Part shown: positions 7,107-58,433 of the stretch, piece by piece | Position numbering within the stretch: the first letter of the stretch is position 1 | How the letters are laid out: every line of letters starts with the position of its first letter | IMG/VR virus record: IMGVR_UViG_3300031992_000029 | Coordinates: 73,482 to 137,481 of that record | Length of the DNA stretch: 64,000 bases | Direction: 5' to 3' (one strand) | Origin: a virus | Lineage: Duplodnaviria > Caudoviricetes | Program-made: the position numbers and the translations under genes | The notes under the pieces: generated by a model | Database searches by the model: none | The model's input: only the letters and a program-made list of their open reading frames with translations | What the model was told of the DNA's origin: nothing

Positions 7107-8078
7107 TTACAGATTAACCTTTACGTATCCGCCGCTGTTAGACCATCCTGACCATACCGGTGTATCTTTTGGGTTTGCACTTGCAGTCGGAATATGGTCG
7201 CACAAATCCATAAGATCTACCCATCTAGGCCCCTTACTTCCAGAATCGAGTAGAAATGCCTTACCATCATCTCTCATCTTGACAAGTAATGAATAATGGT
7301 TTGCTCTGGTATACCTCTTATCTTCTACGCCTGTTTTCTTTGACTTGCTGACGAGTGACACTATGACAGGCATTCCCTTTGCAAGATGTTCCTTAATATC
7401 ATTATACGAATACTGTGTGTTGAACTGGTTTACTCTTGTCGAATCGATGCCGACGCTCTTAAGCATCTTCTGACATGCACCAATACTGATTGGACATTTA
7501 GCTGTCCCTGTAACTGATGCAAGTTTATTCTTATAGTATGCAACAGGCATAATACTGTCATCAGCAAATGTAGCCATAACAGCCAACGCAGAACACATTC
7601 CGCAACCAGATCCAGATATGTTGGCAATACCCTGTGCGTGCTGGTCAAACCCAATATACTTTTTCATGCCACGGGCTGTACTTGTCTCATTAGTTACATA
7701 CCTCTTTCCGCCATTATCTTTCTTTACACTTGTAATATTTGTGTGCAGATCTTTTGTAGCGTTAACACGCCACATCACAATATCATAGTCATCGCCAAGT
7801 GCTTCTTTTCTTTCCTTATCATTTCCGTATTTTCCGGCCCACACATCTTCAGCTGTCTGAACTACCCAAGTAACCTTTTTCTGTACTTCATCATAATAAA
7901 TTCCGAGAAAGTTCTTTCTTTCGTCGCCTTTACCGGCGCGGTCTTCAAGTACGAACTGTGCTAGAATTCTAATAAGATTATCATGGTCGCTAAGTATCTC
8001 ATTTACAGCTTCTGATATCGTAGGCCAATTAGACTCTGTGATACCATTCGTTAAAATTAACTCAATAATACCCATCAA
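7107..8078 (-). CDS. Cell-wall hydrolase-like protein: CW_7 (Cpl-7) repeat plus C39-like peptidase
   Basis: AEDVWAGKYGNDKERKEALG (CW_7); SGCGMCS, NHYSLL, LLDSG catalytic residues. Confidence 0.7.
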   Translation of the reverse strand: MMGIIELILTNGITESNWPTISEAVNEILSDHDNLIRILAQFVLEDRAGKGDERKNFLGIYYDEVQKKVTWVVQTAEDVWAGKYGNDKERKEALGDDYDIVMWRVNATKDLHTNITSVKKDNGGKRYVTNETSTARGMKKYIGFDQHAQGIANISGSGCGMCSALAVMATFADDSIMPVAYYKNKLASVTGTAKCPISIGACQKMLKSVGIDSTRVNQFNTQYSYNDIKEHLAKGMPVIVSLVSKSKKTGVEDKRYTRANHYSLLVKMRDDGKAFLLDSGSKGPRWVDLMDLCDHIPTASANPKDTPVWSGWSNSGGYVKVNL

Positions 8079-27571: not shown

Positions 27572-28750
27572 CTACATAATTCCATTTGACATTGAAATCA
27601 ATCGCAACGCGTTCTTAGCAATTATACTTGCACCATTTCGAATCTCCTCTACACTTGTATACTTAGATACAGATACTCTAATTGTATTTCTCGCCTGATC
27701 GTCAGTAAGCCCCATAGATGTCAATACATAACTAGGTTCTTGCTCTGAACTTCTGCACGCAGATCCAGCTGATATATATACACCGTCTATCGAGCTAAGA
27801 ATAACCATTGTCTCGGCGTCAACTCCGTCAATCCTGACGCTTAACGTTTTTCCAAACTGATCAAGATTATCGCAGTTAAGATGTAGTCTATCTAATAAAC
27901 CAACGTCAGCAAACTCCTTTTGAATTACAGCCCACATCAATCTCTTTCTTGATTTTATCTGACTAAATGTGTTTTCTTCGTTTGAGTTAATAATATCGCA
28001 CGCCTTACCTAGCCCAACAATTCCAGGAACATTTTCCGTTCCTCCTCTATATCCAAATTCCTGTGAATGACCGCCATATATCATCGGACTGAACGGGAAT
28101 CTGCTTAAATCTTTTACGTATAGCGCTCCGACACCCTTAGGGCCGTGAATCTTATGAGCCGAAATTGAAGCTGAATCACAAAACTCACTGACGTTTAACT
28201 TTAAACATCCAGCTGCCTGTACACAATCAGAATGTACCCATATTCCTTTATCTTTGCACAGATTATATATATCGCGAACCGGCTGTATCATTCCAGTTTC
28301 GTTGTTCATATACATCGCAGAAACAAAACCAAATGATCCAGTCTCAATATCTCTATAGAACTCGTCCATATCAATAACGCCAGCCTCGTTAACACCAAGC
28401 ATCTTTATTTTATCTGTTGATGTTGGACCCCAGTCAGGCGTTATTCCCGCTGATCTCAAAATAGAATCATGCTCTATACGTGAAATGAGCATTTTATTCT
28501 GTGTTTTAACGAACGATTTTACGATTGTATTGTTAGATTCGGTTCCTCCTGACGTAAAAATAATGTTTTCCGGGTTCGCTCCCATGAAATCAGCGACTCT
28601 TTTTCTCGCATTTTCAACCGCATCCTTAGCGTTTATGCCAAGTCCATACGTTGTTCCCGGATTACCATACTCATCTTTTAAATATGGCATCATTTCTTCT
28701 AAAACTTCTTCTGCCATCCTCGTTGTGGATGCGTTATCAAGATAAATCAT
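27572..28750 (-). CDS. iscS: Cysteine desulfurase (NifS/IscS family)
   Basis: IYLDNASTT, FTSGGTESNN, NNETG, SAHKIHGPKG, RGGTENV, SAGSAC. Confidence 0.93.
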   Translation of the reverse strand: MIYLDNASTTRMAEEVLEEMMPYLKDEYGNPGTTYGLGINAKDAVENARKRVADFMGANPENIIFTSGGTESNNTIVKSFVKTQNKMLISRIEHDSILRSAGITPDWGPTSTDKIKMLGVNEAGVIDMDEFYRDIETGSFGFVSAMYMNNETGMIQPVRDIYNLCKDKGIWVHSDCVQAAGCLKLNVSEFCDSASISAHKIHGPKGVGALYVKDLSRFPFSPMIYGGHSQEFGYRGGTENVPGIVGLGKACDIINSNEENTFSQIKSRKRLMWAVIQKEFADVGLLDRLHLNCDNLDQFGKTLSVRIDGVDAETMVILSSIDGVYISAGSACRSSEQEPSYVLTSMGLTDDQARNTIRVSVSKYTSVEEIRNGASIIAKNALRLISMSNGIM

Positions 28751-47049: not shown

Positions 47050-47285
47050 AATATATCCTCCGTGTCGAAATATTCCTCCTCCTCTTCGTGAAGGAGTTCG
47101 ATCCATCTTACGCTGAAGTACCACGGGATACCTTCAAGATGGACAGTTTTCCCGCTTCCGCTTACGCTTGATATTTTGAATGTTTTGTTATCATACCTAT
47201 CCATCGGGTTGACCCATCCTGGTTCATCATGTCTTATTGCCGAAGGCTTGTGCACAATAACAGTGTCTCCAGCTTTGTATTTCAC
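47037..47285 (-). CDS. KOW/SH3-like array protein (first of the array, GTGA overlap with the RT stop)
   Basis: KYKAGDTV...EYFDTEDILCLM. Confidence 0.8.
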   Translation of the reverse strand: MKYKAGDTVIVHKPSAIRHDEPGWVNPMDRYDNKTFKISSVSGSGKTVHLEGIPWYFSVRWIELLHEEEEEYFDTEDILCLM

Positions 47286-48463
47286 GACACAGACACACCA
47301 CCTCTCAGATCGTTTTTGATCTCAGATACGATATCCATGTTGAACTTCTTACTGAGATGTTCAACAAGTGCGCTGATAGACTCTCTCTCTATCATCATGT
47401 AGTAGCTACGATGACCTTCGAGAACCTGGACATCGTGGAAATCCCACTGGATTCCATTCCTTTTGTCCATTGCGTAGTTCGACAGCATTGCCGTGAACTG
47501 CTTTCTTCTCTTGTGTCCGATAGTGATCTCGTTGTTTGCGTTAAGCATAACGCCGAGATTCCAATTAGAACCTGCGGAAGAACCGTAGCGTGTTTTCTTC
47601 GACTTGATCGTGAACGGTGCGTCGAAGCTGGAGAGTGTATCTACGATGAACGCCTCGGCTTCCTTGTAGTTGAAATCGTATCTACACGATACAAGAAAGT
47701 CGTCTGCGTACCTTGTGTATACACAGTAATTTTCCACTTCGTTCCCATCTTTATCATGATATTTGAAGTTTCTGAACCCGTTGTAGAGTTTGAAGTCAAC
47801 GGGTATCATAATAATGTTAGTGATAATGGGGCTGATTGGGGTTCCCTGAGGGAGTCCACCGTCAAGGAATGCCAGCTCAAGAGCCTTTTCAAGCTCCGCT
47901 CGCCCAACATCATCGAGACAAACCTGACTGAATGGGAAAATCCACTGAAGCATATCCATAACGTACTTCAGTGTTGTGCTGCCAAAGAAGTTAGATAAAT
48001 CAAACTTGGCAAACCATTTCGATCCATTCCTCTGGTGTCTTTTGATCGAGTCAATGGTTGACCTTTTCTTGATGTACGCAAATGCAGAAGTGTGATACAG
48101 GGCATGACAATCTTCCTCAAAGATTGCCTTCAGATTCCTGAGTGCCGCCTTAAGCTCCTCATTAGGAGCGTCGATCTTTCTGAGGCCACCTGACTTCTTA
48201 GGAATGTAGAACTCTGAATACAGTTCTTTTCTCGGAACCTTCCTGAGCTCCTCTGTCTGCTCATTGAACTGTTTCAGCTTATTTATGATGTTGTCGATAT
48301 CGACGAGGCCCTGAAATTTTTCGCCGATATATTCCACTTCGTATGTTCTTGTGTTTGTCTCGTTCGAGACATACAGCGGAACCTTTGAATCATTTCCAAA
48401 AAGAAATTCCTCAAGTGTCATCTGGTGGTATGCAGGTGACTGCGGTACAGTTACATAAAACAT
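47282..48463 (-). CDS. Retron-type reverse transcriptase
   Basis: IPKKSGGLRKIDAP, AFAYIKKRS..SIKRH (region X-like), KFDLSNFF, LPQGTPISP, YTRYADD, NLGV (VTG-like); no maturase or endonuclease domain; ncRNA directly upstream. Confidence 0.92.
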   Translation of the reverse strand: MFYVTVPQSPAYHQMTLEEFLFGNDSKVPLYVSNETNTRTYEVEYIGEKFQGLVDIDNIINKLKQFNEQTEELRKVPRKELYSEFYIPKKSGGLRKIDAPNEELKAALRNLKAIFEEDCHALYHTSAFAYIKKRSTIDSIKRHQRNGSKWFAKFDLSNFFGSTTLKYVMDMLQWIFPFSQVCLDDVGRAELEKALELAFLDGGLPQGTPISPIITNIIMIPVDFKLYNGFRNFKYHDKDGNEVENYCVYTRYADDFLVSCRYDFNYKEAEAFIVDTLSSFDAPFTIKSKKTRYGSSAGSNWNLGVMLNANNEITIGHKRRKQFTAMLSNYAMDKRNGIQWDFHDVQVLEGHRSYYMMIERESISALVEHLSKKFNMDIVSEIKNDLRGGVSVS

Positions 48464-48473
48464 CTTTTCGTCC

Positions 48474-48768
48474 TTTCGTATTCAACATACAGTTTCTGGG
48501 AGGCGCAGATCCTGGCGCCGGCCGTAACTTAAGCTCGCTGTGCTGGATGTAGTCGTCGATTGGATGTCCATCAAATATAGGAATGGTAGATATATTTGAT
48601 ATTTTCGTGGTTTGGAATTTATGGATGACGACTTCCCGAGGGCCGGCCATCCGGCGGAATCACTGGAGAGATGCATTGCCGCGTGGAGGTGGGTTCCTCT
48701 TTCCACACAAGGTGATACCGTCGTTTACAACTGACGGCACAGACAAATGTCTGTAATACAATACGATT
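48474..48768 (-). ncRNA. Retron-like msr-msd ncRNA copy 6 (cis to the RT)
   Basis: Inverted repeat TCGTATT/AATACGA, G, ACAGAC-ATTT-GTCTGT, GCCGTC-AGTTGTAAAC-GACGGT, msd hairpin GCCGGCC..GTCGTC..ATCAAATATA/TATATTTGAT..GACGAC..GGCCGGC. Confidence 0.88.
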
Positions 48769-48769
48769 C

Positions 48770-48798
48770 AAAAAGCCGGGCTAAATTAATAGCCCGGC
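48770..48798 (-). terminator. Intrinsic terminator after the E1 region
   Basis: GCCGGGCTA-loop-TAGCCCGGC-TTTTT. Confidence 0.8.
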
Positions 48799-49041
48799 AA
48801 CATCTGACCGTACCTGGTACGCAGTGAGATTCAATCTTCCTCGAAAGACTGGAAAGAACAGGTATGACGCAAGCGCCATTCCCGCTGAAACCTGGTTTCT
48901 AACTCCTTATGCGTGTACGGTGCTGATATATATACCACGCCTGGTACGCAACCATAGGATATGCGTGTGTGGTCATAAACAAAAGTCGGTCTTCCCCTCA
49001 AGGAATACCTATAAAAACCAAATGAGGTTTTTGTTCAAACA

Positions 49042-49725
49042 TTAGAAACACATCAGATCGCCAGCGAACCCGTCGATCTGGAGGAACTTCCAGAGCTTCT
49101 GACCCTTAACCCAGTTGATGTAGTTGTTCACGCCGAGTGCAGAGATAAGCCGAACTGTTGTGGCTACACCGAGTGTAATTCCGCAGGCGCTCACAGGAGT
49201 TTCAGCCGCCGCTTCCTCGTGTGTGAAAGCCATGGAAGCCTTGAGCGCTTCTTTCTGTTTCAGATCACTCCAATCAGCCGCATAGTGCTGGGCGGATGTG
49301 AGCAGGGTTCTGAAATCGAGCACCAGCTTTACGAACGGTGAGTTCCAGTGCTTGTCGACGATTTCATTTCTGAGCTCGATACTGTCTACTGCGAGTACGA
49401 TGATGCCGGACATCATCTTTCCCTGCCATCCTTCGGGATGGAGCTTGATCTTATCTGCGATTGCGGGATTGATTGATACAAGGATGTCGCGAAGCGCTTC
49501 GACCTTGGGCATCCCGACCTGCTCCTGCGTGAACATCTGATTGACAATGTTATGTGCTTCAACATCGTCAAAGTCCCACAGCTGGAAGTTTTCCACGCCG
49601 CACCGTGCGAGGTTCTCTGCTACGGTTGATCCTACAGAACCACATCCTACGATGTGGATTGTAGACTTTTCTTCGTCAGGGTTGAAGAATTCATATGACT
49701 TTGACAGGTCCATTACGTTGCTCAT
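49042..49725 (-). CDS. E1-like ThiF/MoeB activating enzyme
   Basis: IVGCGSVGS, WDFDDVEAHNIVNQ, GMPKV, AVDS..R, SACG (candidate catalytic Cys). Confidence 0.9.
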   Translation of the reverse strand: MSNVMDLSKSYEFFNPDEEKSTIHIVGCGSVGSTVAENLARCGVENFQLWDFDDVEAHNIVNQMFTQEQVGMPKVEALRDILVSINPAIADKIKLHPEGWQGKMMSGIIVLAVDSIELRNEIVDKHWNSPFVKLVLDFRTLLTSAQHYAADWSDLKQKEALKASMAFTHEEAAAETPVSACGITLGVATTVRLISALGVNNYINWVKGQKLWKFLQIDGFAGDLMCF

Positions 49726-49753
49726 TTTAAAGTTCCTCCTTATTATTTTTTAT

Positions 49754-50149
49754 TTATAATTTCTGTACGGCTAAAACAGACTTTCTCATATTGCCAATCA
49801 TGTCTGCATGAAAAGACCTATTAAACCCGAAATTATCTTCGATGAAGTCTTTTAACTCGTTTTTAAGCTCATAGAGAAGGTCAGAATCGTCTTCAAGTAC
49901 GAAGATTTCACCTGACGGATCACGATAGTAGTAGTCGAATCCGTCGTATTCCTCCCAATCGAGGAGGGTGAATTTAATAGTGCGCCAGTTGGAACACCCT
50001 TTCACAATATCGGAAAGGGTTTCCATAAGAATCTCATCTCTTGCGTCTCCGTCTAAGATGTAATCAGCAATGCTGTAACAGTCGTACATTTTTGCAACTT
50101 TGAGAAGTTCATCGACCGTATAGATGCTATCAAATTCTTCTTTTGTCAT
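49754..50149 (-). CDS. Acidic hypothetical protein (paralog of 50160-50615)
   Basis: MTKEEF...TVDEL...DARDEIL...W.....YY. Confidence 0.7.
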   Translation of the reverse strand: MTKEEFDSIYTVDELLKVAKMYDCYSIADYILDGDARDEILMETLSDIVKGCSNWRTIKFTLLDWEEYDGFDYYYRDPSGEIFVLEDDSDLLYELKNELKDFIEDNFGFNRSFHADMIGNMRKSVLAVQKL

Positions 50150-50159
50150 GTGATTTTCC

Positions 50160-50615
50160 TCAGATTACCTGGAACTCAGACACGAATTCTTTGAATTCGT
50201 CGTCCGTCCACTCATCCATGGCCTCTTCGATCTCGACCTCTTCTACAAATTCTTCATCGAACTCTTCATCGTTCTCGAAGCATTCGTTTTCATCCATGAA
50301 GTCGTAGAGATCTTCCTTGAGGCTCTCGAACTCGTCATCTCCGTCTGTAATAGGACGGAAGTCACCCCAGTCGTCATAGACATACCAGTCGTATCCCCCG
50401 TCGTCTTCCCAGCCGTTCAGTATGCCGAGCATTTCTCTCCATGAGTAATCGCCCACACTGTCGACCATTCTTTCGTTAAGGATGTCATCTCTTGCGTCGG
50501 ATGAGTAGATTTTTTCTTGTACATCATCACAACCCACGTCTATTGCCGTGTCTACCAGCTCTTCGACAGTTGTGATGTCATTAAATTCCTCTCTTGTCAT
50601 TTGGTCTCCTTTCAA
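50160..50615 (-). CDS. Very acidic hypothetical protein (paralog of 49754-50149)
   Basis: MTREEF...TVEEL...DARDDIL. Confidence 0.7.
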   Translation of the reverse strand: MKGDQMTREEFNDITTVEELVDTAIDVGCDDVQEKIYSSDARDDILNERMVDSVGDYSWREMLGILNGWEDDGGYDWYVYDDWGDFRPITDGDDEFESLKEDLYDFMDENECFENDEEFDEEFVEEVEIEEAMDEWTDDEFKEFVSEFQVI

Positions 50616-51664
50616 TAATCAAGGCCATATCTCATGAGGAGTTCATCGTTAGCATTCTCTTGTTCTGCGAGAACGCTATCGATGTACTCCTCCCAAGTTT
50701 CATAAGTATCGGCGTCGTTTGTTCCAACGACTGTTGTTTTTCCTTCGCTTATTTTTTTTTTATATCCGAATCTCTGACCCTGATCACCCTTTCCTGCCGG
50801 TGTAACACTTCCGGGTGCCGGTTTTCCGCCGTTTCCGCCGGTCGTCACTACTGCGGGAGTTGTGGTTACTTTACTGGTATTTGCGGGTGCACCGCCTCTC
50901 TGCTGATTTCCGCCGGAATATCCGCCCTGATATCCTGTGTACCCGGACGTTCCGCCGTAATCGTAGTAGCCATATCCGCCACTGTATCCGCTGTAAGCAT
51001 ATCCAGAACCGGTAGAGCCAGTATTCGTATAGACATGCTTTTTTACCTGATCGTCTGCCTTTGCGACGAAACCCTCAAGACCCTCGACTACAACGTCGAT
51101 ATCCTTGTTGTCAAAAGAAAGATTATCACGGAGGTCATAGATGATCCTCGTCATATCTCCTTTTTTATTGTGGATCGTGAAAATATAGAAGTCGTCCTGC
51201 GGAAGCTGCCCAAGGATGCGCCTGTATAACGTCTCGTCTGTTGTGCTGGGGCTTACACCCATATTGACGTGGGAATGGCACTGGGCGCGGATGGAATTGA
51301 ATTCCTCATCCGTGTGTGCATACAGCCATTTCGTGTATTCCTCCTGATCCGTGGTCACGGTTGCGCCGGTGACTTCCTGGGGATATACTTCCAGATCTTC
51401 GATCTTATATGTGTTTTCCTCACCATCAACACGGTGTGCGAATCCGTGCCATGCTACTTCGGAACTGAAGTGGTCTACAAGGACCTTCGTCTTCAGCCAT
51501 GCCTTTGTGCTGTACACCAGCGTGGCCTTCTTATTTACAGTCCCGAAGTCGTGTGTGAACGTAAACTTACCATTGGCAAGTTTACTCGTTGTAAGTGCCT
51601 TCTTGAACTCCTCGATAATGGAGTCCATCTGTGATCCGATGTCAACTTTGATGACTTTTGCCAT
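50612..51664 (-). CDS. JAB/JAMM metalloprotease with low-complexity G/Y-rich tail
   Basis: SEVAWHG ... HSHVNMGVSPSTTD (E-HxH-x7-S-x2-D). Confidence 0.88.
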   Translation of the reverse strand: MAKVIKVDIGSQMDSIIEEFKKALTTSKLANGKFTFTHDFGTVNKKATLVYSTKAWLKTKVLVDHFSSEVAWHGFAHRVDGEENTYKIEDLEVYPQEVTGATVTTDQEEYTKWLYAHTDEEFNSIRAQCHSHVNMGVSPSTTDETLYRRILGQLPQDDFYIFTIHNKKGDMTRIIYDLRDNLSFDNKDIDVVVEGLEGFVAKADDQVKKHVYTNTGSTGSGYAYSGYSGGYGYYDYGGTSGYTGYQGGYSGGNQQRGGAPANTSKVTTTPAVVTTGGNGGKPAPGSVTPAGKGDQGQRFGYKKKISEGKTTVVGTNDADTYETWEEYIDSVLAEQENANDELLMRYGLDY

Positions 51665-53130
51665 TACTTATTTTCCTCCTTTTTAAGCCACTCGATTGCA
51701 CCGTTGGGGTCAACGACCGTTCCGTCAGGCAGCTCGAAAGCTCTGACGTTAACATCACGTCTTCCCGCGATACAGCTCATGAAATACTCCATTACTGTTC
51801 CGTCGGAGAAGTTGAGCGATCCGCAGGATGCGATGCACTGTGTGATTGCCCCTACGTTATCGCCTCTCGACATGTAATCTGTCATGATGCGTTCGTAGCT
51901 GCCAATACAGTTATACTGATTTATATGCGGGTTAGGCATGTACGTCTCTTTGATTCCCTCAAGGAACGACGCTCCGCCACGCGGCCTGACACGGCTGTTA
52001 AGATCAATCTGATACTCAGCGCAGAATCTTAACCGGATCTTCCTGTCGATGAATACGGCTCTCATAAGAGCTTCAATATCCTCAGCAGAAATCCAGTCCT
52101 CTGTGCTCCTGTATACAAATGATCTCTTGTTTTCGATTACCTTTTCTGCGAGATCTTCGTCGAATAAATCGCAGTACGCCGTAACCTGAACGGAGATGCT
52201 GTTTCCGTCCACCCTGTTAAGGTGAAGGGCGTTCTTATTCGCAAGGAAGAAGTCCATGATGCCACTTCCCGTCTCGCCAGATGCGATCTTAACCTGAAGA
52301 CCTTCATACTGGATTTCCATCTTTCTGATGTCGTTCAGGATCTGGGCGATAGATTCCTGATACCGCTGGATATCGTTCCTTTTACTCTGGATGGAGTTTC
52401 TCACATTCTCAACAGTCTCTCTGTCGAGGCGTGTCTCGATGTCGCCGAGCAGTTTCTTGACTCTTGCTGTTTCAAGGTCGAGCTTTGCGGCGAACTTTCT
52501 GCAGGACTCAAGGTAGGCTGCGGGATCTTTCACACGAAGTCCTTCGATCATCTCCATCTCTTCAGGAGAGATTCCATCCTCTTTGTTGAAATACCACGGC
52601 AGATAGGCAAGGATGCCACACTGCATATAGTGGTATCGCTGCATCGTGAGGTTCTTTACATACAGCATTACGTTGTGGTTCTCGGTATCACAGATGCAGA
52701 TGCATTTGAAGCCTGTGATCTTCTGGAAGAACGCCGTTACCCTGGGCAGCTTTTCCCACTTGTCGTACTCAGGAAGAAGTTTCTCTTCCACCCATGCAAG
52801 CCATGCATCGTTGTCCTCCTCATTGGAGGCGTCGAATACATGCAGGCCGATGTGTGTTACGCTGGGGCCGCCCCAGTATGTAGGGTAAAATTCTGCTGTC
52901 TCTGCCAGAGTGCTGAGATCGTACCTCTCAAGATAACTCTTCCTCTCGTTGGAAGAAGTGATATTGAGGACGACCCTTTCTCCTTCCTTCATTCTGGGGT
53001 AAACAATTCCTCTCAACGTAGAGAGGAATGTCAGGTCTCCGAGGTACGCGTTACCTTCAACAACTCCGTTGAAGAAGTCATTTGCGCCCTCCGACACTAA
53101 CGCTGTATTTCTGATACTGTTTCTAAACAT
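51664..53130 (-). CDS. Coiled-coil protein with C-terminal prokaryotic E2-like domain
   Basis: PNPHINQYNCIG motif (PH-x5-C); between Ubl genes and JAB. Confidence 0.6.
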   Translation of the reverse strand: MFRNSIRNTALVSEGANDFFNGVVEGNAYLGDLTFLSTLRGIVYPRMKEGERVVLNITSSNERKSYLERYDLSTLAETAEFYPTYWGGPSVTHIGLHVFDASNEEDNDAWLAWVEEKLLPEYDKWEKLPRVTAFFQKITGFKCICICDTENHNVMLYVKNLTMQRYHYMQCGILAYLPWYFNKEDGISPEEMEMIEGLRVKDPAAYLESCRKFAAKLDLETARVKKLLGDIETRLDRETVENVRNSIQSKRNDIQRYQESIAQILNDIRKMEIQYEGLQVKIASGETGSGIMDFFLANKNALHLNRVDGNSISVQVTAYCDLFDEDLAEKVIENKRSFVYRSTEDWISAEDIEALMRAVFIDRKIRLRFCAEYQIDLNSRVRPRGGASFLEGIKETYMPNPHINQYNCIGSYERIMTDYMSRGDNVGAITQCIASCGSLNFSDGTVMEYFMSCIAGRRDVNVRAFELPDGTVVDPNGAIEWLKKEENK

Positions 53131-53160
53131 TTTCCCACTCCTTTCATTTTTTTTGTGGAT

Positions 53161-53231
53161 TCAAGACGGCAGGAGTCGAACCCGCTACATACACGGTTTG
53201 ACCGGTTGCTCTGCCGTTGAGCTACGTCTTG
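53161..53231 (-). ncRNA. tRNA-like RNA with defective anticodon arm
   Basis: Acceptor CAAGACG/CGTCTTG, canonical D and T arms; anticodon arm CGG-TCAAA-CCG. Confidence 0.6.
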
Positions 53232-53233
53232 AT

Positions 53234-53269
53234 AAAAACGCCCCGCGAGGATAATTCCTGACGGGGCGT
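53234..53269 (-). terminator. Intrinsic terminator after the Ubl genes
   Basis: ACGCCCCG...CGGGGCGT-TTTT. Confidence 0.75.
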
Positions 53270-53319
53270 ATGTATTCTCATTATTCAGTTTTTATTTGCC
53301 CTTTATTGGGCGATCATTT

Positions 53320-53553
53320 TCAGGCCGCTGCGTTGTCTGCCTTCTGCACGGACAGAAGGTAGCAAGACTCTGCGATGCCGAATTCCGCGAAAGTCTTGTC
53401 AAGAGCGCCGGGCTGAAGGGTGACGCCATCCAGCATCATGGCACCATGAGCATAATCGATACCATTGGTTTCAAGCGCCTGGCGGAGTGTAGTGCTGCTG
53501 TCAACGATAACATTTTTTCTTGTGGTGTTGTTTCCGAGGGTAACTCTGATCAT
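53320..53553 (-). CDS. Stand-alone ubiquitin-like (beta-grasp) protein ending KADNAAA
   Basis: MIRVTLGNNTTRKNVIVDSSTTLRQAL...LDGVTL...LDKTFAEFGI...LLSVQK. Confidence 0.8.
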   Translation of the reverse strand: MIRVTLGNNTTRKNVIVDSSTTLRQALETNGIDYAHGAMMLDGVTLQPGALDKTFAEFGIAESCYLLSVQKADNAAA

Positions 53554-53650
53554 ACTTTTACTTCCTTTCATTCAAAAGGAGCGGGTATTCCCCGCTCCAC
53601 AACTGTATCTATATCGGAGCGAGCTATAAACTAACTCCGGTATTTACTTC

Positions 53651-54268
53651 TTAAGCGAGGGTAATCGCACCCTCGATCTCAGCCTTCTCTTTGCGTACCT
53701 CTTCAAGAACAGCCGGGAAGGTCGCCTCGATCTTATTGATGTTCAGAACGAGCCTGCCGTATGTGTCGGACAGATATGCCTTGATATCATCAACGTCGCT
53801 GGGAATGGAGACGGTAATGGTCGCCTTGCCGGAGCCGTCATGAGCCTCAGCGCCGAACTCAGCGCCTACCTTGTTGATGCTTCCCATTCCTGTTCCGAGC
53901 CCGATTGCGTAGACGAATTCCTTGCCGTCTTCACCGCCGAAGAGCTGCAGGGCATCGGGGCGATACTTTTTGATCATTTCGATGTCGGCCTTCTTTACGC
54001 CGGAGACGATTACTGCGGCCTGGCCTGCCGTCTTGATCTCCGCGGCGTTGTCTGCCTTCTGAACACTCAGAAGGTAGCAAGATTCCGCGATACCGAACTC
54101 AGCGAAGGTCTTATCGAGAGCGCCCGCCTGCAGGGTCACACCATCCAGCATCATGGCACCATGTGTGTAGTCCACACCGTTGGCCTCAAGTGCCTGACGA
54201 AGTGTGGTAGCGCTGTCGACGATGACGTTTTTCCTCATTGTGTTGTTTCCGATAGTAACCTTAATCAT
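53651..54268 (-). CDS. Ubl-domain fusion protein (Ubl + domain X)
   Basis: Near-identical Ubl followed after KADNA by a ~130-aa domain. Confidence 0.8.
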   Translation of the reverse strand: MIKVTIGNNTMRKNVIVDSATTLRQALEANGVDYTHGAMMLDGVTLQAGALDKTFAEFGIAESCYLLSVQKADNAAEIKTAGQAAVIVSGVKKADIEMIKKYRPDALQLFGGEDGKEFVYAIGLGTGMGSINKVGAEFGAEAHDGSGKATITVSIPSDVDDIKAYLSDTYGRLVLNINKIEATFPAVLEEVRKEKAEIEGAITLA

Positions 54269-54394
54269 TTTTACTCCTTTCATTCAAAGGAGCGGGGTAT
54301 TTCCCCGCTCCAAAAACATTGTTATATCAACTGAGTGCCATAAGCCTTGGGCTACCGATTAAGCCGGGGTTCTCTGTGGACTCGTGTTGATCTC

Positions 54395-55012
54395 TTATGC
54401 GAGGGTGATTGCGCCCTCGATCTCGGCCTTCTCCTTGCGGACTTCCTCAAGTACTGCCGGGAAGGTAGCCTCGATCTTGTTGACGTTCAGGACAGACCTG
54501 CCGTACTGGTCAGCGAGATAAGCCTTCACATCCTTCACGCCATCGGGGATGATGACGGTGATGGTTGCCTTGCCGGAGCCGTCATGAGCTTCTGCACCGA
54601 ATTCAGCACCGTATCTGTTGATCTCACCGATTCCGCTACCCAGGCCGATAGCGTAGACAACTTCCTTGCCGTTTTCACCGCCGAAGAGCTGGAGTGCTTC
54701 AGGGCGATACTTCTTTACCATTTCAATGTCGGCGCGCTTCACGCCGGAGACGATCACTGCTGCCTGACCGGTGGTCTTGATCTCTGCTGCGTTGTCTGCC
54801 TTCTGCACGGACAGCAGATAGCAAGACTCGTTGATGCCGAATTCCGCGAAGGTCTTGTCGAGAGCACCTGCCTGCAGGGTGACGCCGTCAAGCATCATGG
54901 CACCATGCGCATAATCGATGCCGTTGGCCTCCAGTGCCTGGCGGAGCGTGGTAGCGCTGTCAACAATAACGTTCTTCCTGGTTGTGTTGTTACCCATAGT
55001 AACTCTGATCAT
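54395..55012 (-). CDS. Ubl-domain fusion protein (Ubl + domain X), second copy
   Basis: Highly similar to 53651-54268. Confidence 0.8.
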   Translation of the reverse strand: MIRVTMGNNTTRKNVIVDSATTLRQALEANGIDYAHGAMMLDGVTLQAGALDKTFAEFGINESCYLLSVQKADNAAEIKTTGQAAVIVSGVKRADIEMVKKYRPEALQLFGGENGKEVVYAIGLGSGIGEINRYGAEFGAEAHDGSGKATITVIIPDGVKDVKAYLADQYGRSVLNVNKIEATFPAVLEEVRKEKAEIEGAITLA

Positions 55013-55288
55013 ACTTTTTACTTCCTTTCATTCCTCCGGTTTCCCGGGTGCTATGTTAATTCGGCTTGCGACGCCGTAACGATTTCTGCACGTATGTACA
55101 TCTTGAGAGTTACTCCGTCAACATACGTTATTCTATTTTTGTTTCCTGTTAATTCTGTTAATGAGGATTGCCATTCCCGGCTTCTTATTGCCATGGTCTT
55201 ATTGGCGTCGCCGTGGTCTTACAGCCTAGGTCTTACAGGCGGCTCGTAAAGAACCGCCTTGCCCGTTTTGTTAGCCGTCGCTGACCGA

Positions 55289-55687
55289 TTAGCCTGCAAT
55301 CACGATGGCATCCATGATGGTCGCCATCTTGGAATCGATGTCAGCCACAGCCGCCGGAATCTTAGCTTCCAGCTCGTTGGCGAGAACGATGTAGGGGCCG
55401 ATCTTGTCAGCTACATACTGCTTGATGTCGTCAGCCTGAACATCTTCCCCGATCATCAGGGTGATTGTGGCCTTGCCATCTCTGCCGGGAGTAGCGGAAA
55501 ACTCAGCGCCGAACTTACCGATCCTGCCGGGACCCTCTGCGATGCCGAAGCCGAAGATAGGTTCCTTGCCGTCTTCGCCGCCCATAAGGACGAGCTTTTC
55601 AGGAGCATACTTCTTGATCTTCTCCAGGTCTGCGAGCTTAACATTACCGGAAACTACGATTGCCTGTCCTGCGATTACTGCCTTCAT
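55289..55687 (-). CDS. Stand-alone domain X paralog (no Ubl)
   Basis: AGQAIVVSG.VK.AD.E.IKKY.P..L.L.GGEDGKE...GAEF...GKATIT; RBS AAAGGAGG before MKAV. Confidence 0.8.
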   Translation of the reverse strand: MKAVIAGQAIVVSGNVKLADLEKIKKYAPEKLVLMGGEDGKEPIFGFGIAEGPGRIGKFGAEFSATPGRDGKATITLMIGEDVQADDIKQYVADKIGPYIVLANELEAKIPAAVADIDSKMATIMDAIVIAG

Positions 55688-55981
55688 ATTGTTGGCCTCC
55701 TTTATTTCTGCGCTTTTTGTTGAGTGTCGCAACTATTGCGAAAGGAACACTCCTCACCTTGCGCTTAGTGAGCATATTAGTTACTTTTCCCCGCTTTAAA
55801 TCACCGCATTTGGCGCCAGGGAAAGGGGGAAGAAACCTGACGCCAGCGGCTTTGTTGATTTTTCTGATGCCGTACCATCCTTCGGGCCCTCATGTCCCGC
55901 ATAGATAAGAGCTATTAGCCCAGCTCAAGGGAGAAGTACGGTTTTTATACGGTGTCAACTCACCGGATTTGATTTGGGTGT

Positions 55982-56695
55982 TTACTCACCCGTGACCTGG
56001 TCACTCATTTTGTATATAAGACTGGGATAGGGGTGGTCCTTATAAAACTCCCCCTGCTCGTCTTCAAGGATCATGGGTCGATACGGGCTTACCCCGTATT
56101 TCTCATACAGAAGCCTCATCACATCATCAAGGAATTCCTCAGTGTCGACATAGTCGACGGTATCAGCTCTGTACAGTGCAACTGCGAGGAACTCAGAAGC
56201 CGCGTCTGACAGTTCCTCCTCGCGTTCCTTGATGTTTTCTTTCTGTTCCTCTTCTTCCTCGTCAAGGTCTACATAATCGATAAAATCCTCGATAAGGTTG
56301 GACATGACCTCTTCGGTCTCGTCCTTTAAAGATCTCCCTCTGAGAGGAGTCACATATTCGGTCTGGATACATTCGAATCCGTAAAGACCCGTGTCTTTAT
56401 CGTCTTCATCATCAAGCTCGTTTTTGTCACTAGAGGTCTTCTGATATACATAAAACACGGGAGATCCGTATTCCGTCGCAATGTATAATCTTAAATCTCC
56501 AGCGTCGGATTCGGCGACGCGGTACATTACGTCTTCCTCCTCCATAATTCCTTGATGTTCATTGTAGAACTCAAAGATTCTGCATGTAGGTGTGATTATT
56601 TTCGCCACACCAAATCCTCCTTTCGTAATGTTTATTTTTATGTTGACATTTCCAAAAAAAGGAGCCTTTCGGTTTATATGTGTATTATACCACAC
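55982..56695 (-). CDS. Acidic hypothetical protein (real start probably GTG near 56608)
   Basis: RBS AAAGGAGG upstream of VAKII; upstream promoter. Confidence 0.65.
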   Translation of the reverse strand: MWYNTHINRKAPFFGNVNIKINITKGGFGVAKIITPTCRIFEFYNEHQGIMEEEDVMYRVAESDAGDLRLYIATEYGSPVFYVYQKTSSDKNELDDEDDKDTGLYGFECIQTEYVTPLRGRSLKDETEEVMSNLIEDFIDYVDLDEEEEEQKENIKEREEELSDAASEFLAVALYRADTVDYVDTEEFLDDVMRLLYEKYGVSPYRPMILEDEQGEFYKDHPYPSLIYKMSDQVTGE

Positions 56696-56712
56696 TTGTT
56701 TGGATTTGTCAA
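56684..56712 (-). promoter_or_regulatory. SigmaA-type promoter upstream of the Ubl module
   Basis: TTGACA-17-TATAAT. Confidence 0.85.
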
Positions 56713-57466
56713 CATAATTTTATAATTTACCACCACTCATTAATACACACGAATCTTCCGTCCTGGAGTTCCCACACTTCAAAATCGTAGTCCATTACGT
56801 GTGATCTTACGTACTCTTCCCAGTCGTTTGCCAATGTAATTGGCGTTCTGCGGGCGTCTGTTTCATACTGGTCATAGAGAGCCTCGCATTTTACAATAAG
56901 ATACATGTTTCCTCCTATATCTGGTCGAAGTTCTACGCCTTACATACCATACAGTTGTATTCTGGAACATCGCACAGAAGATATCTTCTGTAATATCCTT
57001 TTGAACTGTTAAAGAACATCTTCTCCCTTTTTCTAATGATTGCCCGGAGGACAATATCTGCTGAGGTCTCCTCTGCTTCTTCGACCTCGTCAAGGGTTAC
57101 AAAAATGTTTTTGTCATTCTTGTGTTTCATGATTTCCTCCGCAGTTTCAAACTAAAATTTCATTTATATCATTGGGTACGATATGACTTTGACGTTCTTT
57201 CCTTGCTTACATTTCATTACGAACTTCCTGGCAAGAAACGGAGAATCAAAGTGTCTGATAAGTTTTACCCCATCTTTATTGATGAAAACCACATCGTTAC
57301 TTCCTATGATTGTGGTCTCATCCACGTATTCAGTAGCGCCCACGGAGGAGCACCACATACGTTAAACGGTCGAGAAGATCGTCGATTGCCGGGAACTTCT
57401 TTGATGCCCAGCAGATCACTCCGCCTATTCCGAAAAATCCTACTACTACCATTGCCGCTACCATGC

Positions 57467-57836: not shown

Positions 57837-58433
57837 TCATTCCCATTCTTTATCCTCTCTGAGTCTGAGGGTGCAGCCATCTACAACCCCGAGCTCGCAG
57901 AACGACTTGTTCATTGTCTCGTCTGTGAGCAAAAATCCTCTTTTGCCCATCAGAATGTTACACTTGAGCCCGTCCATTACAATCCCTGCGTAGTCAAGTA
58001 CCTCTTTCACCGTCTTATTCCTGTCAGTTTCTAACTTCACGCTAAGACCGTCGAAAGCGATTGTCACGTTGACGGGCCCGTTTCCGAGCATGAACACTTT
58101 CATGGAGTTCTCGAGCCACCTTTCGAGCGTCTCGTATGGTGTCCATGTGTTGCTGTCGCCGATACCGAAAATGTACTTTCCGGTATCACCGATCCCTTCT
58201 ACAGGAGTATTTCCCTCACTGGAGAGAGCAAAGAACACTCTCATTGCGTCTGCAGTTCTTATATCCGCATACCTCGCGAGGACCGGCAGATATACCCTTC
58301 TTCCCGCATCGTCATACATAAAGAGTTCCTTATAGAAAACCTCTCTGTCCTTCGTGATACTCTTCTCGTATTCCTCACACTTGCTTTTGCTACTGAATCG
58401 GCTGCCGTCTTCGGCAACATATAAAACTTTCAT
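57837..58433 (-). CDS. Protein with C-terminal Ubl-like domain
   Basis: C-terminal VNVTIAFDG...KTVKEVLDYAGI...MNKSFCELGVVDGCTLRL; N-terminal half resembles 58695-58940 and 58937-59269. Confidence 0.6.
   Translation of the reverse strand: MKVLYVAEDGSRFSSKSKCEEYEKSITKDREVFYKELFMYDDAGRRVYLPVLARYADIRTADAMRVFFALSSEGNTPVEGIGDTGKYIFGIGDSNTWTPYETLERWLENSMKVFMLGNGPVNVTIAFDGLSVKLETDRNKTVKEVLDYAGIVMDGLKCNILMGKRGFLLTDETMNKSFCELGVVDGCTLRLREDKEWE

Follow-up and report, generated by a model that had tools for sequence, protein, structure and literature searches.

Does a phage carry its own ubiquitin-like (Ubl) conjugation system and, if so, through which residue would a tag without a C-terminal Gly-Gly be joined to its target? 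The question is raised by a 64,000-nucleotide stretch (the window) of a 137-kb uncultured phage from gut or rumen. Between 49042 and 55687, its minus strand carries, in this order, a stand-alone domain X, two Ubl-X fusions, a free Ubl, a tRNA gene, a 488-residue protein (P488), a JAB peptidase, two acidic paralogs and a ThiF-type E1. A preliminary description had proposed a phage-borne conjugation module here, and every ORF that it named was found on the minus strand in the same order. The best explanation, which we hold with moderate confidence from sequence comparisons and structural models, is that the phage encodes at this locus a cassette for ubiquitin-like activation and conjugation.

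Conservation and punctuation of the cassette

This arrangement of genes is shared by 80 IMG/VR phage loci and by GenBank record MT835544.1, where it is maintained even at 22% P488 identity. The block of X/Ubl, P488, JAB and ThiF was present in all 35 diverse loci compared, whereas the best-conserved flanking family was found in only 27 of them; the arrangement is not due to chance. The number of Ubl domains equalled the number of X domains in each of these 35 genomes. A retron-type reverse transcriptase (RT; 47282..48463, minus strand), a conserved downstream neighbour outside the span first described, follows ThiF in 76 of the 80 loci and in 34 of the 35 diverse ones, and in the apparent exception it lies 5.8 kb further on. 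Both the 1:1 Ubl:X dosage and the 35-of-35 block with an RT downstream in 34 are new in this analysis. We found no paper that describes the cassette, and the PADLOC models matched nothing in it outside the E1 domain.

A promoter-like site with a perfect sigma-70 consensus (TTGACA-17-TATAAT with TG, 12 of 12 matches; 56684..56712, minus strand) heads the block and is the sole such site on the minus strand from 48400 to 57000. Because it overlaps the GTG codon listed as the start of an acidic protein upstream of X (55982..56695, minus strand; pI 4.24), the true start of that gene probably lies downstream; the protein is a frequent, not a constant, neighbour (27 of the 35 diverse loci). On the same strand, GC-rich hairpins with U-runs lie between the two Ubl-X genes (54289..54311, attenuator-like; -20.1 kcal/mol, z -5.2) and between the second fusion and the free Ubl (53578..53598; -18.2 kcal/mol, z -4.7), a strong terminator-like hairpin with a U-run follows the free Ubl (53239..53269; -23.4 kcal/mol, z -5.6), and another terminator-like hairpin with a U-run stands after ThiF and before the RT (48775..48798; -19.5 kcal/mol, z -5.3). 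The tRNA gene (53160..53232, minus strand; Rfam tRNA, 43 bits) sits between the free Ubl and P488. ARAGORN called it as Leu with anticodon CAA, and at 73 nt it is too short to have a long variable arm; a tRNA occupies the same slot in 17 of 32 relatives scanned, as Leu-UAA in 15. The tRNA and the attenuator punctuation, like the 1:1 dosage and the tight linkage to the RT, had been overlooked in the preliminary description.

The predicted tag, its partner X and the candidate processing and activating enzymes

Stand-alone X (132 aa) is encoded at 55289..55687 on the minus strand, from ATG 55687. Also on that strand, the first fusion (54395..55012) joins a Ubl ending in KADNA (54788-55012) to an X domain whose first residue is Ala (54398-54787), the second (53651..54268) joins a Ubl at 54044-54268 to an X at 53654-54043, and the free Ubl precursor of 77 aa (53320..53553) consists of 75 residues to KADNA plus two Ala (codons 53323-53328). 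Since the upstream ATGs fall within the ribosome-binding site AAAGGAG, the most likely start codons are ATG 54268 for the second fusion and ATG 53553 for the free Ubl, which corrects the first reading of both genes.

Identity among the three Ubl domains is 89-93% and, as previously reported, they lack Gly-Gly, all reading SVQKADNA and then Ala. To our knowledge, an Asn-Ala tail is without precedent in a folded Ubl. Weak signals suggest that the fold is probably a beta-grasp: the Ubl profile gave an in-register match to a ubiquitin variant (E 0.11), hhalign against ThiS/MoaD gave a P of 7.6e-4 (0.39-0.44 for two controls), weak Pfam matches were to TUG-UBL1 and DUF2604, and the nearest Atlas clusters that have a Pfam family belong to ThiS or TmoB.

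Most stand-alone Ubl genes in relatives stop exactly after K-x-D-N-A, a minority encode 1-3 extra residues after D-N-A (A, GQ, R or LAA), and one tail reads D-G-G-I-H, with G-G replacing N-A. These tails argue that the mature Ubl most likely ends in Ala, exposed by cleavage after DNA; of the two conjugating residues first suggested, they favour C-terminal Ala and speak against Asn. Stand-alone X proteins start M-A-K, matching exactly the point at which the fusions run on past DNA. The Ubl with its two added Ala and the two Ubl-X fusions support the earlier proposal that the precursors require trimming. Domain X had no match in Pfam, PHROG or PDB; because Ubl and X domains are equal in number in every genome examined, X is our leading candidate for a partner or substrate of the tag.

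On sequence grounds, the JAB assignment is real. Residues 1-200 of the protein at 50612..51664 (minus strand) form a predicted JAB/MPN+ metalloprotease, whose profile aligns with Rpn11 across the whole MPN domain (E 0.007) with the catalytic Glu, HxH, Ser and Asp in alignment; the JAMM motif, described from the outset as intact, is present (E69...H130-S-H132-x7-S140-x2-D143; 51236-51277) and invariant in 27 relatives. The C-terminal tail is Gly/Tyr/Ser-rich and not conserved. Assignment of the E1 (49042..49725, minus strand), predicted to be a minimal ThiF-type protein of 227 aa with an adenylation domain only, is firm and agrees with the original claim, as the Pfam ThiF model scored 83.2 bits against a cut-off of 28.1 (E-value 2e-23). 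The best matches of its family profile were Uba1 and UBA5 (~5e-17), followed by MoeB (2e-14), MccB and Cap2, and NCBIfam and PADLOC E1-E2 models matched its domain at 1e-17 to 7e-19. The GCGSVG nucleotide loop and Cys181 (codon 49183-49185) are invariant in 26 relatives. Together, the ThiF match, the intact JAMM and the Ubl tails support a phage-borne module of E1, JAB and Ubl. Between JAB and ThiF lie two acidic proteins on the minus strand (50160..50615, 36% Asp+Glu, pI 4.05; 49754..50149, pI 4.22), which are paralogs as had been stated (E about 1e-16, 35% identity); about half of relatives have a homologue of the first in this position.

P488 as an E2-like candidate and the competing readings

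P488 (51664..53130, minus strand) is predicted to consist of three parts, namely an alpha/beta domain at the N-terminus (about residues 22-196), a long helix (residues 231-284) and a C-terminal UBC/RWD-like domain (residues 287-488; 51667-52272, minus strand). The AF2 pLDDT is 92.5 overall and 95.4 over the C-domain. The P-H402-x5-C408 motif, from which an E2-like role had been proposed, is present, and Asn400, His402 and Cys408 (51907-51933, minus strand) show no variation across 53 homologues which, apart from one at 69%, are only about 30-40% identical. A Foldseek search with the C-domain model gave no match, and P488 had no sequence similarity to any E2 in Pfam or PDB. In an exhaustive structural scan, 121 of 48,161 chains reached Z 2 and nearly all of the top 50 (Z 3-5.2) were E2, UEV or RWD folds, the best being RWD domains (Z 4.7-5.2), with true E2s at Z 3-4.3, among them the bacterial Bil E2 8tyz_C (Z 3.7); a second structural look agreed. 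RWD and UEV proteins are non-catalytic. The invariant residues sit in the beta4-alpha2 connector, where E2s have HPN...Cys, in the order N-P-H rather than H-P-N. A structural zinc site is unlikely, since both of the cysteines nearby vary (2 of 37 rows have another residue in place of Cys370, and several in place of Cys432). The motif and the UBC/RWD/UEV-type matches thus uphold an E2-like candidate, at low structural Z, and leave its membership of the E2 family unsupported.

From gene anatomy and homology we infer four steps. The strong promoter would drive the X and Ubl genes, and the hairpin attenuators and tRNA gene would part these from the enzyme genes, so that synthesis of tag and partner probably exceeds that of the enzymes. 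The Rpn11-like JAB would then cut the Ubl with its two Ala and both fusions directly after KADNA, yielding a 75-residue Ubl with an Ala end and an X with an Ala start. The minimal, UBA5-like E1 would adenylate the C-terminal Ala of the Ubl and may accept the tag as a thioester on Cys181. Finally, the tag would move to Cys408 in the diverged C-domain of P488, assisted by Asn400 and His402, and the N-terminal domain and long helix would probably select the substrate, as in an E2/E3 hybrid. Conjugation itself, its targets and any role against host defences such as Bil or CBASS we likewise infer. The preliminary interpretation is kept as to the module, the E2-like candidate and precursor trimming, and refined in that the conjugating residue would be Ala, not Asn.

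It is unlikely, in our judgement, that the Ubl is instead a sulfur carrier, activated by ThiF, given a C-terminal thiocarboxylate by a phage or host cysteine desulfurase and delivering sulfur in a 1:1 complex with X in the manner of MoaD and MoaE, with the JAB freeing the tail of the fused precursors and P488 acting as an accessory ligand-binding or persulfide-relay protein. The equal Ubl and X counts in 35 of 35 genomes and the fusions that must be cleaved do recall MPT synthase and MoaX, a MoaD-MoaE fusion that is cleaved. Over 115-134 aligned residues, the P488 N-domain gave consistent structural matches to MoaB/MogA/gephyrin-G (Z 4.5-5.2); the E1 has MoeB among its best matches, and a class-V aminotransferase gene (IscS/NifS-like; 27572-28750) is present in the phage. 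However, the Ubl family ends in Asn-Ala, and all characterised sulfur carriers of which we know end in Gly-Gly. No similarity between X and MoaE was detected. Pfam models for MoaE, MoCF_biosynth and ThiS found nothing in the phage genome even at E 10, and it has no radical-SAM match above the Pfam cut-off, the sole weak one (E 0.009, 12.7 bits) lying directly upstream of NrdD in the window. This reading also leaves the invariant Asn, His and Cys of the UBC/RWD-like domain unexplained, and, although raised at the outset, it is weakened by the position of the IscS gene, which lies 20 kb off and is missing from a 100%-complete relative that retains the module.

Just as improbable is attachment by the E1 alone, with P488 a non-catalytic RWD/UEV-type adaptor or scaffold for tag or target. 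An E2 is not strictly required, since archaeal SAMP/UbaA conjugate by E1 alone, and Thermus TtuB/TtuC is a further precedent; the E1 has its own invariant Cys, P488 lacks E2 sequence similarity, and its C-domain scores slightly higher against RWD domains than against true E2s. Yet invariance of Asn400, His402 and Cys408 across diverged homologues suits chemistry better than binding, and variation of Cys370 and Cys432 argues against a structural zinc site. Slightly less probable again is that cassette and RT form one machine, in which the product of reverse transcription (DNA or RNA), or else the RT, would receive the activated Ubl in place of ordinary protein targets. The RT is retained nearly throughout the loci, including MT835544.1, and other flanking genes are far less conserved, but a strong terminator separates it from ThiF in this window, the proteins have no sign of nucleic-acid binding, no RT was seen in relative L076 (a record only 72% complete), and all cases may share one phage lineage, so that common inheritance of gene order could explain the linkage. 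We consider it very improbable that the JAB just frees X from a Ubl 'leader', much as deubiquitinases free ribosomal proteins from ubiquitin fusions, with ThiF and P488 unrelated in role: Ubl-X fusions are frequent (>100 clusters of ~205 aa), but in most relatives X and Ubl are separate genes and JAB, ThiF and P488 are still kept, and conservation of the Ubl tail extends to genes whose product requires no cleavage.

Comparison with known systems

The proposed conjugation cassette shares a small beta-grasp protein and a minimal E1 with ThiS/MoaD and ThiF/MoeB and with TtuB/TtuC/TtuD. A JAMM protease accompanies some sulfur-carrier systems, and sulfur carriers have 1:1 partner proteins (MoaE, ThiG), comparable with X here. 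In contrast, those carriers end in Gly-Gly and have no UBC-like component, and their biosynthetic partner enzymes were not detected in this phage. Eukaryotic ubiquitin genes encode ubiquitin-ribosomal protein fusions and polyubiquitin with a capping residue; here too the tag has both a capped precursor and fusions in which it stands at the N-terminus, all of which would be resolved by a protease. UBA5, of the UBA5-UFM1 pair, ranks with the best matches of the E1 and is its closest minimal homodimeric counterpart, but the tag is related to ubiquitin and UFM1 by marginal scores only, its tail differs, and the setting is viral and prokaryotic.

In type II CBASS, Cap2 (E2-E1) and Cap3 (JAB) act on the C-terminus of the CD-NTase, and conjugation through a C-terminal Ala is documented with this E1/E2 (PMC10097602), which makes a non-Gly Ubl end chemically feasible. 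The E1 domains are similar by NCBIfam and PADLOC E1-E2 models, and a further likeness is the JAB, which as Cap3 both trims and deconjugates (PMC10097602). However, the tag in CBASS is the cGAS enzyme itself rather than a small beta-grasp protein, its E2 and E1 are fused, and both cyclase and effector are absent here.

In the Bub system (formerly 6E), a JAB-E1 fusion (BubCD) cleaves a Ubl-E2 fusion (BubAB) (PMC11601596). Both systems have a Ubl fused N-terminally to another cassette protein (~130 aa), a JAB cut needed to expose the Ubl C-terminus and, as a relative of UBA5 and ThiF, a minimal E1 of the homodimer type. Bub, however, cuts after a conserved Gly and uses Ser/Tyr oxyesters without a catalytic Cys (PMC11601596), whereas the phage cassette has an invariant Cys181 in the E1 and an invariant Cys408 in P488. 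Its JAB and E1 are encoded separately, no DUF6527 (BubE) was found, and X has neither a conserved Ser-His pair nor a sequence that hints at a UBC fold.

Bil (BilABCD, types I and II; operon class 6d of Iyer et al. 2006) conjugates a Ubl in bacteria as a defence against phages (PMC10557695, PMC11601596, PMC1779556). As in Bil, one operon holds a Ubl, an E2-type protein with a catalytic Cys (here a candidate), a JAB peptidase and an E1, with no separate E3, and structural matches to the P488 C-domain include a Bil E2. Unlike Bil, which resides in bacterial defence islands and has an IAD-AAD-CYS E1, this cassette is carried by a phage, and its E1 is a 227-aa single adenylation domain; its E2 candidate is a 488-aa, three-part protein without sequence similarity to BilB, its Ubl ends in Asn-Ala, and it comes with an obligatory partner X and a linked RT.

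Organization and conservation of the cassette

The co-oriented gene block spans positions 49042-55732 on the minus strand of the window and is the only such cassette in the 137,481-bp virus record, whose right-hand 64 kb make up the window. Its first gene encodes X, the partner domain of the ubiquitin-like (Ubl) tag (55289-55687; 132 aa counted from the ATG at 55687), and is preceded by a gene for a 237-aa acidic protein and by a perfect sigma-70-type promoter on the same strand (56712-56684). X is followed, all on the minus strand, by two Ubl-X fusions (54395-55012 and 53651-54268), a free Ubl (53320-53553), a tRNA (53160-53232), P488, the 488-aa E2-like candidate (51664-53130), the JAB protein (50612-51664; 350 aa), two acidic paralogs (50160-50615 and 49754-50149) and the ThiF protein (49042-49725; 227 aa). 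A gene for a retron-type reverse transcriptase (RT) lies beyond the end of the cassette (47282-48463, minus strand). Because the upstream ATGs listed for the second Ubl-X fusion and the free Ubl sit within the ribosome-binding site AAAGGAG, their products most likely start with MIKV and MIRV, respectively. GC-rich hairpins followed by U-runs were found 3′ of both Ubl-X genes, the free Ubl gene and the ThiF gene (z of −4.7 to −5.6 relative to shuffled sequences); they thus separate the genes for tag and partner from those for the enzymes and mark the end of the cassette ahead of RT.

The arrangement is widely conserved. When IMG/VR was scanned with a pattern, 105 relatives of P488 came up, and 80 loci, mostly on contigs of 50-150 kb, were retained; ThiF and JAB were present at 79 of these loci and RT at 76. 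After dereplication, X/Ubl, P488, JAB and ThiF each occurred at all 35 loci and RT at 34, the lone exception having RT 5.8 kb further downstream, and the best-conserved flanking family was found at 27 of the 35. Metagenomes from gut and rumen contain the cassette in abundance. A plasmid collection gave no match to it, and the sole match among GenBank phage records, an uncultured contig from human faeces (MT835544.1), keeps the order X-Ubl(...DNA+LAA)-P488-JAB-ThiF-RT at 22% P488 identity.

The tRNA between the free Ubl and P488 was called Leu(CAA) by ARAGORN, yet at 73 nt it is too short to carry the long variable arm typical of bacterial tRNA-Leu. Of 32 relatives, 17 also have a tRNA in this position ahead of P488, usually Leu-UAA of ∼85 nt, with tRNA-Met (locus L001) and tRNA-Lys (locus L052) also seen. 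The other genes of the window are of replication type, encoding the anaerobic ribonucleotide reductase NrdD, split by a LAGLIDADG-containing intein (3-2711, minus strand), Pol III alpha, DnaB, DnaG and an IscS/NifS-like class-V aminotransferase (27572-28750, minus strand; Pfam 2e-67). The aminotransferase gene is present in three of four near-complete relatives and absent from a complete 147-kb relative; its product may serve the anaerobic ribonucleotide reductase rather than Ubl, and its closest bacterial relatives are mostly from Clostridia. A Gram-positive host is hinted at by a likely lysin (7107-8078, minus strand), which combines CW_7 repeats with a C39-like peptidase domain.

The Ubl tag, its C-terminal tail and X

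The three Ubl copies of the window are 89-93% identical. A Ubl profile aligned weakly, but in register, with a ubiquitin variant (E of 0.11), and hhalign comparison with a ThiS/MoaD alignment assembled from bacterial genomes gave a P of 7.6e-4, compared with 0.39-0.44 for reversed-sequence and X-domain controls. Pfam matches to TUG-UBL1 and DUF2604 were marginal, and Atlas neighbours of Ubl carry ThiS or TmoB. This set of weak but concordant sequence signals points to a probable beta-grasp fold.

The preliminary description held that the Ubl domains end without glycine and that conjugation proceeds through a terminal Ala or Asn. The first part stands, in that the family ends in K-x-D-N-A and not in the Gly or Gly-Gly used for activation; the sole Gly-Gly relative, at locus L049, reads D-G-G and then I-H. 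As for the conjugating residue, Ala is more likely than Asn because the stand-alone Ubl genes of related phages usually stop exactly at K-x-D-N-A, with A, R, GQ or LAA added past DNA in some copies and AA in the window. In the Ubl-X fusions X starts with Ala directly after DNA, and stand-alone X starts with Met-Ala-Lys at the same position; therefore, both routes would leave Ala at the C-terminus of Ubl and at the start of X. Judged from these sequences, Asn-Ala most likely replaces Gly-Gly, with the cut predicted after Ala. Such an end is unusual but not impossible, since a CBASS E1/E2 uses a C-terminal Ala (PMC10097602). MccB-like chemistry on a C-terminal Asn, in the style of microcin C7, was considered and dropped because the Ubl genes end in Ala, not Asn.

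Tail and protease changes coincide at two loci. The JAB substitution Y94F is confined to L049 and L054 (tail D-S-A-A), the only two relatives without the tail Asn, and the L049 protease has five unique changes at near-invariant positions (V93L, Y94F, P95K, V103F and Y160Q), mostly within the otherwise conserved segment 93-103, of which L054 shares Y94F; the L049 tail and protease features lie at L049:6910-7146 and L049:8702-9328. Although these changes may reflect co-adaptation of tail and protease, the two loci are sisters in a quick tree (SH-aLRT 92), which allows a single origin, and the covariation therefore carries little weight.

The number of Ubl domains equalled the number of X domains in all 35 genomes, 33 of them having one of each, one (L055) two of each and the window three of each. 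We conclude that X is a core component and stoichiometric partner of the tag. One of its residues, Lys26 in the numbering of stand-alone X, is nearly invariant. X had no match in Pfam (including a per-member scan), PHROG, NCBIfam, PADLOC or the PDB; an Atlas search with the Ubl-X fusion gave nothing useful for X, and no fused forms of X longer than Ubl-X were found. The X / Ubl-X / Ubl-X / Ubl stretch (53651-55732) resembles three X-Ubl units whose two inner Ubl/X junctions are fused in frame. However, the two fused X domains are 85% alike, whereas stand-alone X shares just 43-47% identity with them, and the layout is therefore not a simple recent triplication. Upstream of the cassette, a gene at 57837-58433 (minus strand) encodes a 198-aa protein whose C-terminal ∼55 residues (137-190, with ...TLRLREDKEWE at their end) match the Ubl profile (hhalign E of 2.2e-5, probability 76%); this would be a fourth Ubl-like domain, inside a larger protein and without the DNA tail.

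The predicted enzymes ThiF, JAB and P488

Two of the enzyme assignments in the preliminary description, an E1/ThiF and a JAB protease with an intact JAMM motif, were borne out. ThiF scored 83.2 bits against Pfam PF00899 (gathering cut-off 28.1), which places it in the superfamily, and its nucleotide loop GCGSVG is invariant in 26 relatives. A profile of these relatives matched the Uba1 active adenylation domain and UBA5 in the PDB at ∼5e-17, ranking them above MoeB, MccB, Cap2 and ThiF. Cys181, also invariant in the 26 relatives, lies just after the crossover region and 8 residues before a T-T motif that aligns weakly with S-L-P-T-T of UBA5. Since conjugating E1s have their catalytic Cys in or shortly past the crossover loop, Cys181 may be the counterpart of UBA5 Cys250.

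In JAB, residues E69, H130, H132, S140 and D143 are invariant in 27 relatives and form the JAMM motif E...H-x-H-x7-S-x2-D. The profile of these relatives aligned to Rpn11 residues 18-133, the whole MPN domain, at an E of 0.007, and all catalytic residues (Glu, His-x-His, Ser and Asp) fell in register; the Pfam Prok-JAB score was 14.5 bits, under the cut-off of 25. The C-terminal 150 residues form a Gly/Tyr/Ser-rich tail without conservation. Residues ∼205-350 (50612-51049, minus strand) comprise a low-complexity stretch rich in Gly, Tyr, Ser and Thr (26 Gly and 11 Tyr in 96 residues) and then an acidic end, and vary in sequence among relatives.

P488 belongs to a family of 1,626 cluster representatives (E≤1e-3), nearly all of 470-500 aa and without annotation; BFVD held one unannotated siphovirus homologue, and no stand-alone C-terminal domain was found. 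The E2-like reading of this gene stood in part. No sequence similarity to E2 enzymes was detected, either as UQ_con or Prok-E2 Pfam matches at E up to 1 or as an E2 in a P488 profile search of the PDB at E up to 10. AlphaFold gave confident models (pLDDT 92.5 for the whole protein and 95.4 for residues 287-488, the C-domain), and Foldseek returned nothing from the PDB at E≤0.001 for the full-length protein or the C-domain. Because full-length P488 in an exhaustive structural scan gave coiled-coil matches only, all to the 54-residue helix that joins its N- and C-terminal halves, the C-domain was modelled alone. When it was compared with 48,161 chains by VIA-align, 121 reached Z≥2, and the top 50 consisted almost entirely of UBC-superfamily folds (Z of 3-5.2), a result with which a repeat look agreed. 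These matches comprised RWD domains (SEA complex, Knl1, RNF25, GCN2 and listerin), E2s (UBC12, Ubc9, UbcH7, UbcH10, Ubc13, Ube2K and UFC1), UEVs and one bacterial Bil E2, with RWD domains scoring slightly higher than E2s.

The modelled order of elements, alpha1-beta1-beta2-(helical insert)-beta3-beta4-connector-alpha2-alpha3-alpha4, fits that of UBC, and the beta4-alpha2 connector holds the motif P-N400-P-H402-x5-C408, in which N400, H402 and C408 are invariant. Relative to the HPN motif of E2s, Asn and His have swapped places and Cys follows at a shorter distance than the usual ∼8-10 residues. We read the C-domain as a putative, strongly diverged relative of UBC/RWD domains that has a plausible catalytic centre; at these low Z values its membership of the superfamily is tentative. 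A zinc site formed by C370, H402, C408 and C432 was dropped, since C432 is not conserved and C370 is lost in two relatives. The N-terminal domain gave consistent but weak matches to MoaB/MogA/gephyrin-G (Z of 4.5-5.2), and hhalign detected no similarity between the N- and C-domains that would indicate an internal duplication.

Proposed pathway and relation to known systems

The best-supported reading of these sequences is that JAB would trim the Ubl precursors, ThiF would adenylate the exposed tail, and the tag would then move to Cys408 of P488 and be conjugated to a target, for which X is the leading candidate. It is also possible that the system is E1-only and that P488 acts as an adaptor, as the slightly higher scores of RWD domains over E2s would suggest. 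A further alternative is that ThiF and Ubl, with the 1:1 partner X, deliver sulfur. The 1:1 partner, the Ubl-X fusions, the MogA-like hint in the N-terminal domain of P488 and the phage-encoded IscS would all fit such a carrier. However, the tail is Asn-Ala instead of Gly-Gly, the genome had no match to MoaE, MoCF_biosynth or ThiS even at an E of 10 and no radical-SAM match above the Pfam cut-off, IscS is lost in a complete relative that retains the module, and the Asn, His and Cys of P488 are invariant, so that we regard sulfur delivery as unlikely.

It is their linkage that suggests functional coupling of RT and the cassette, although a terminator separates the two in the window and the loci may all stem from one lineage. 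A more far-reaching proposal, to which we give a small chance, is that cassette and RT work together as a single phage machine, in which an Ala-activated tag would be joined via P488 either to X (as a dedicated 1:1 conjugate, as in Atg12-Atg5) or directly to the DNA/RNA that the retron reverse-transcribes or to RT; if true, a bacterial virus would couple ubiquitin-like modification to reverse transcription. The strict 1:1 ratio with X and the near-constant RT linkage point to a directly testable function and, because all parts of the cassette are small and soluble-looking, reconstitution in E. coli should be straightforward.

Full-text literature searches turned up no paper on a comparable phage cassette or on a retron linked to ThiF; Iyer et al. 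2006 described Ubl/JAB pairs of lambda-type tails and E1/E2/JAB operons of bacteria, not this cassette (PMC1779556). Among the ten proteins from X to RT, PADLOC matched no model beyond the E1 domain and Pfam gave no match to DUF6527. Of the PRTRC cassette models (NCBIfam TIGR03735-03742), only PRTRC_ThiF was matched, and its score of 23.2 bits lies below the cut-off of 144.75. Unlike the Bil E1, ThiF here is 227 aa long with one adenylation domain, and the hallmarks of ThiS/MoaD systems were not seen, neither Gly-Gly at the tail nor, in the genome, matches to a partner synthase or biosynthetic gene. Bub (6E) is marked by a serine protease (BubE, DUF6527), by fusion of JAB to E1 and by the lack of Cys in E1/E2, whereas in the cassette JAB and E1 are encoded by separate genes and Cys181 and Cys408 are invariant. 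The gene layout is a prokaryotic-virus parallel, a convergent one, to ubiquitin-fusion genes, and the cassette, if active, would widen the chemistry tolerated at the Ubl tail from Gly-Gly to Asn-Ala. To our knowledge, the characterised bacterial ubiquitin-like conjugation systems (Bil, Bub and CBASS Cap2/Cap3) serve anti-phage defence only; here it is the phage side that carries a complete-looking kit, drawn from families without annotation.
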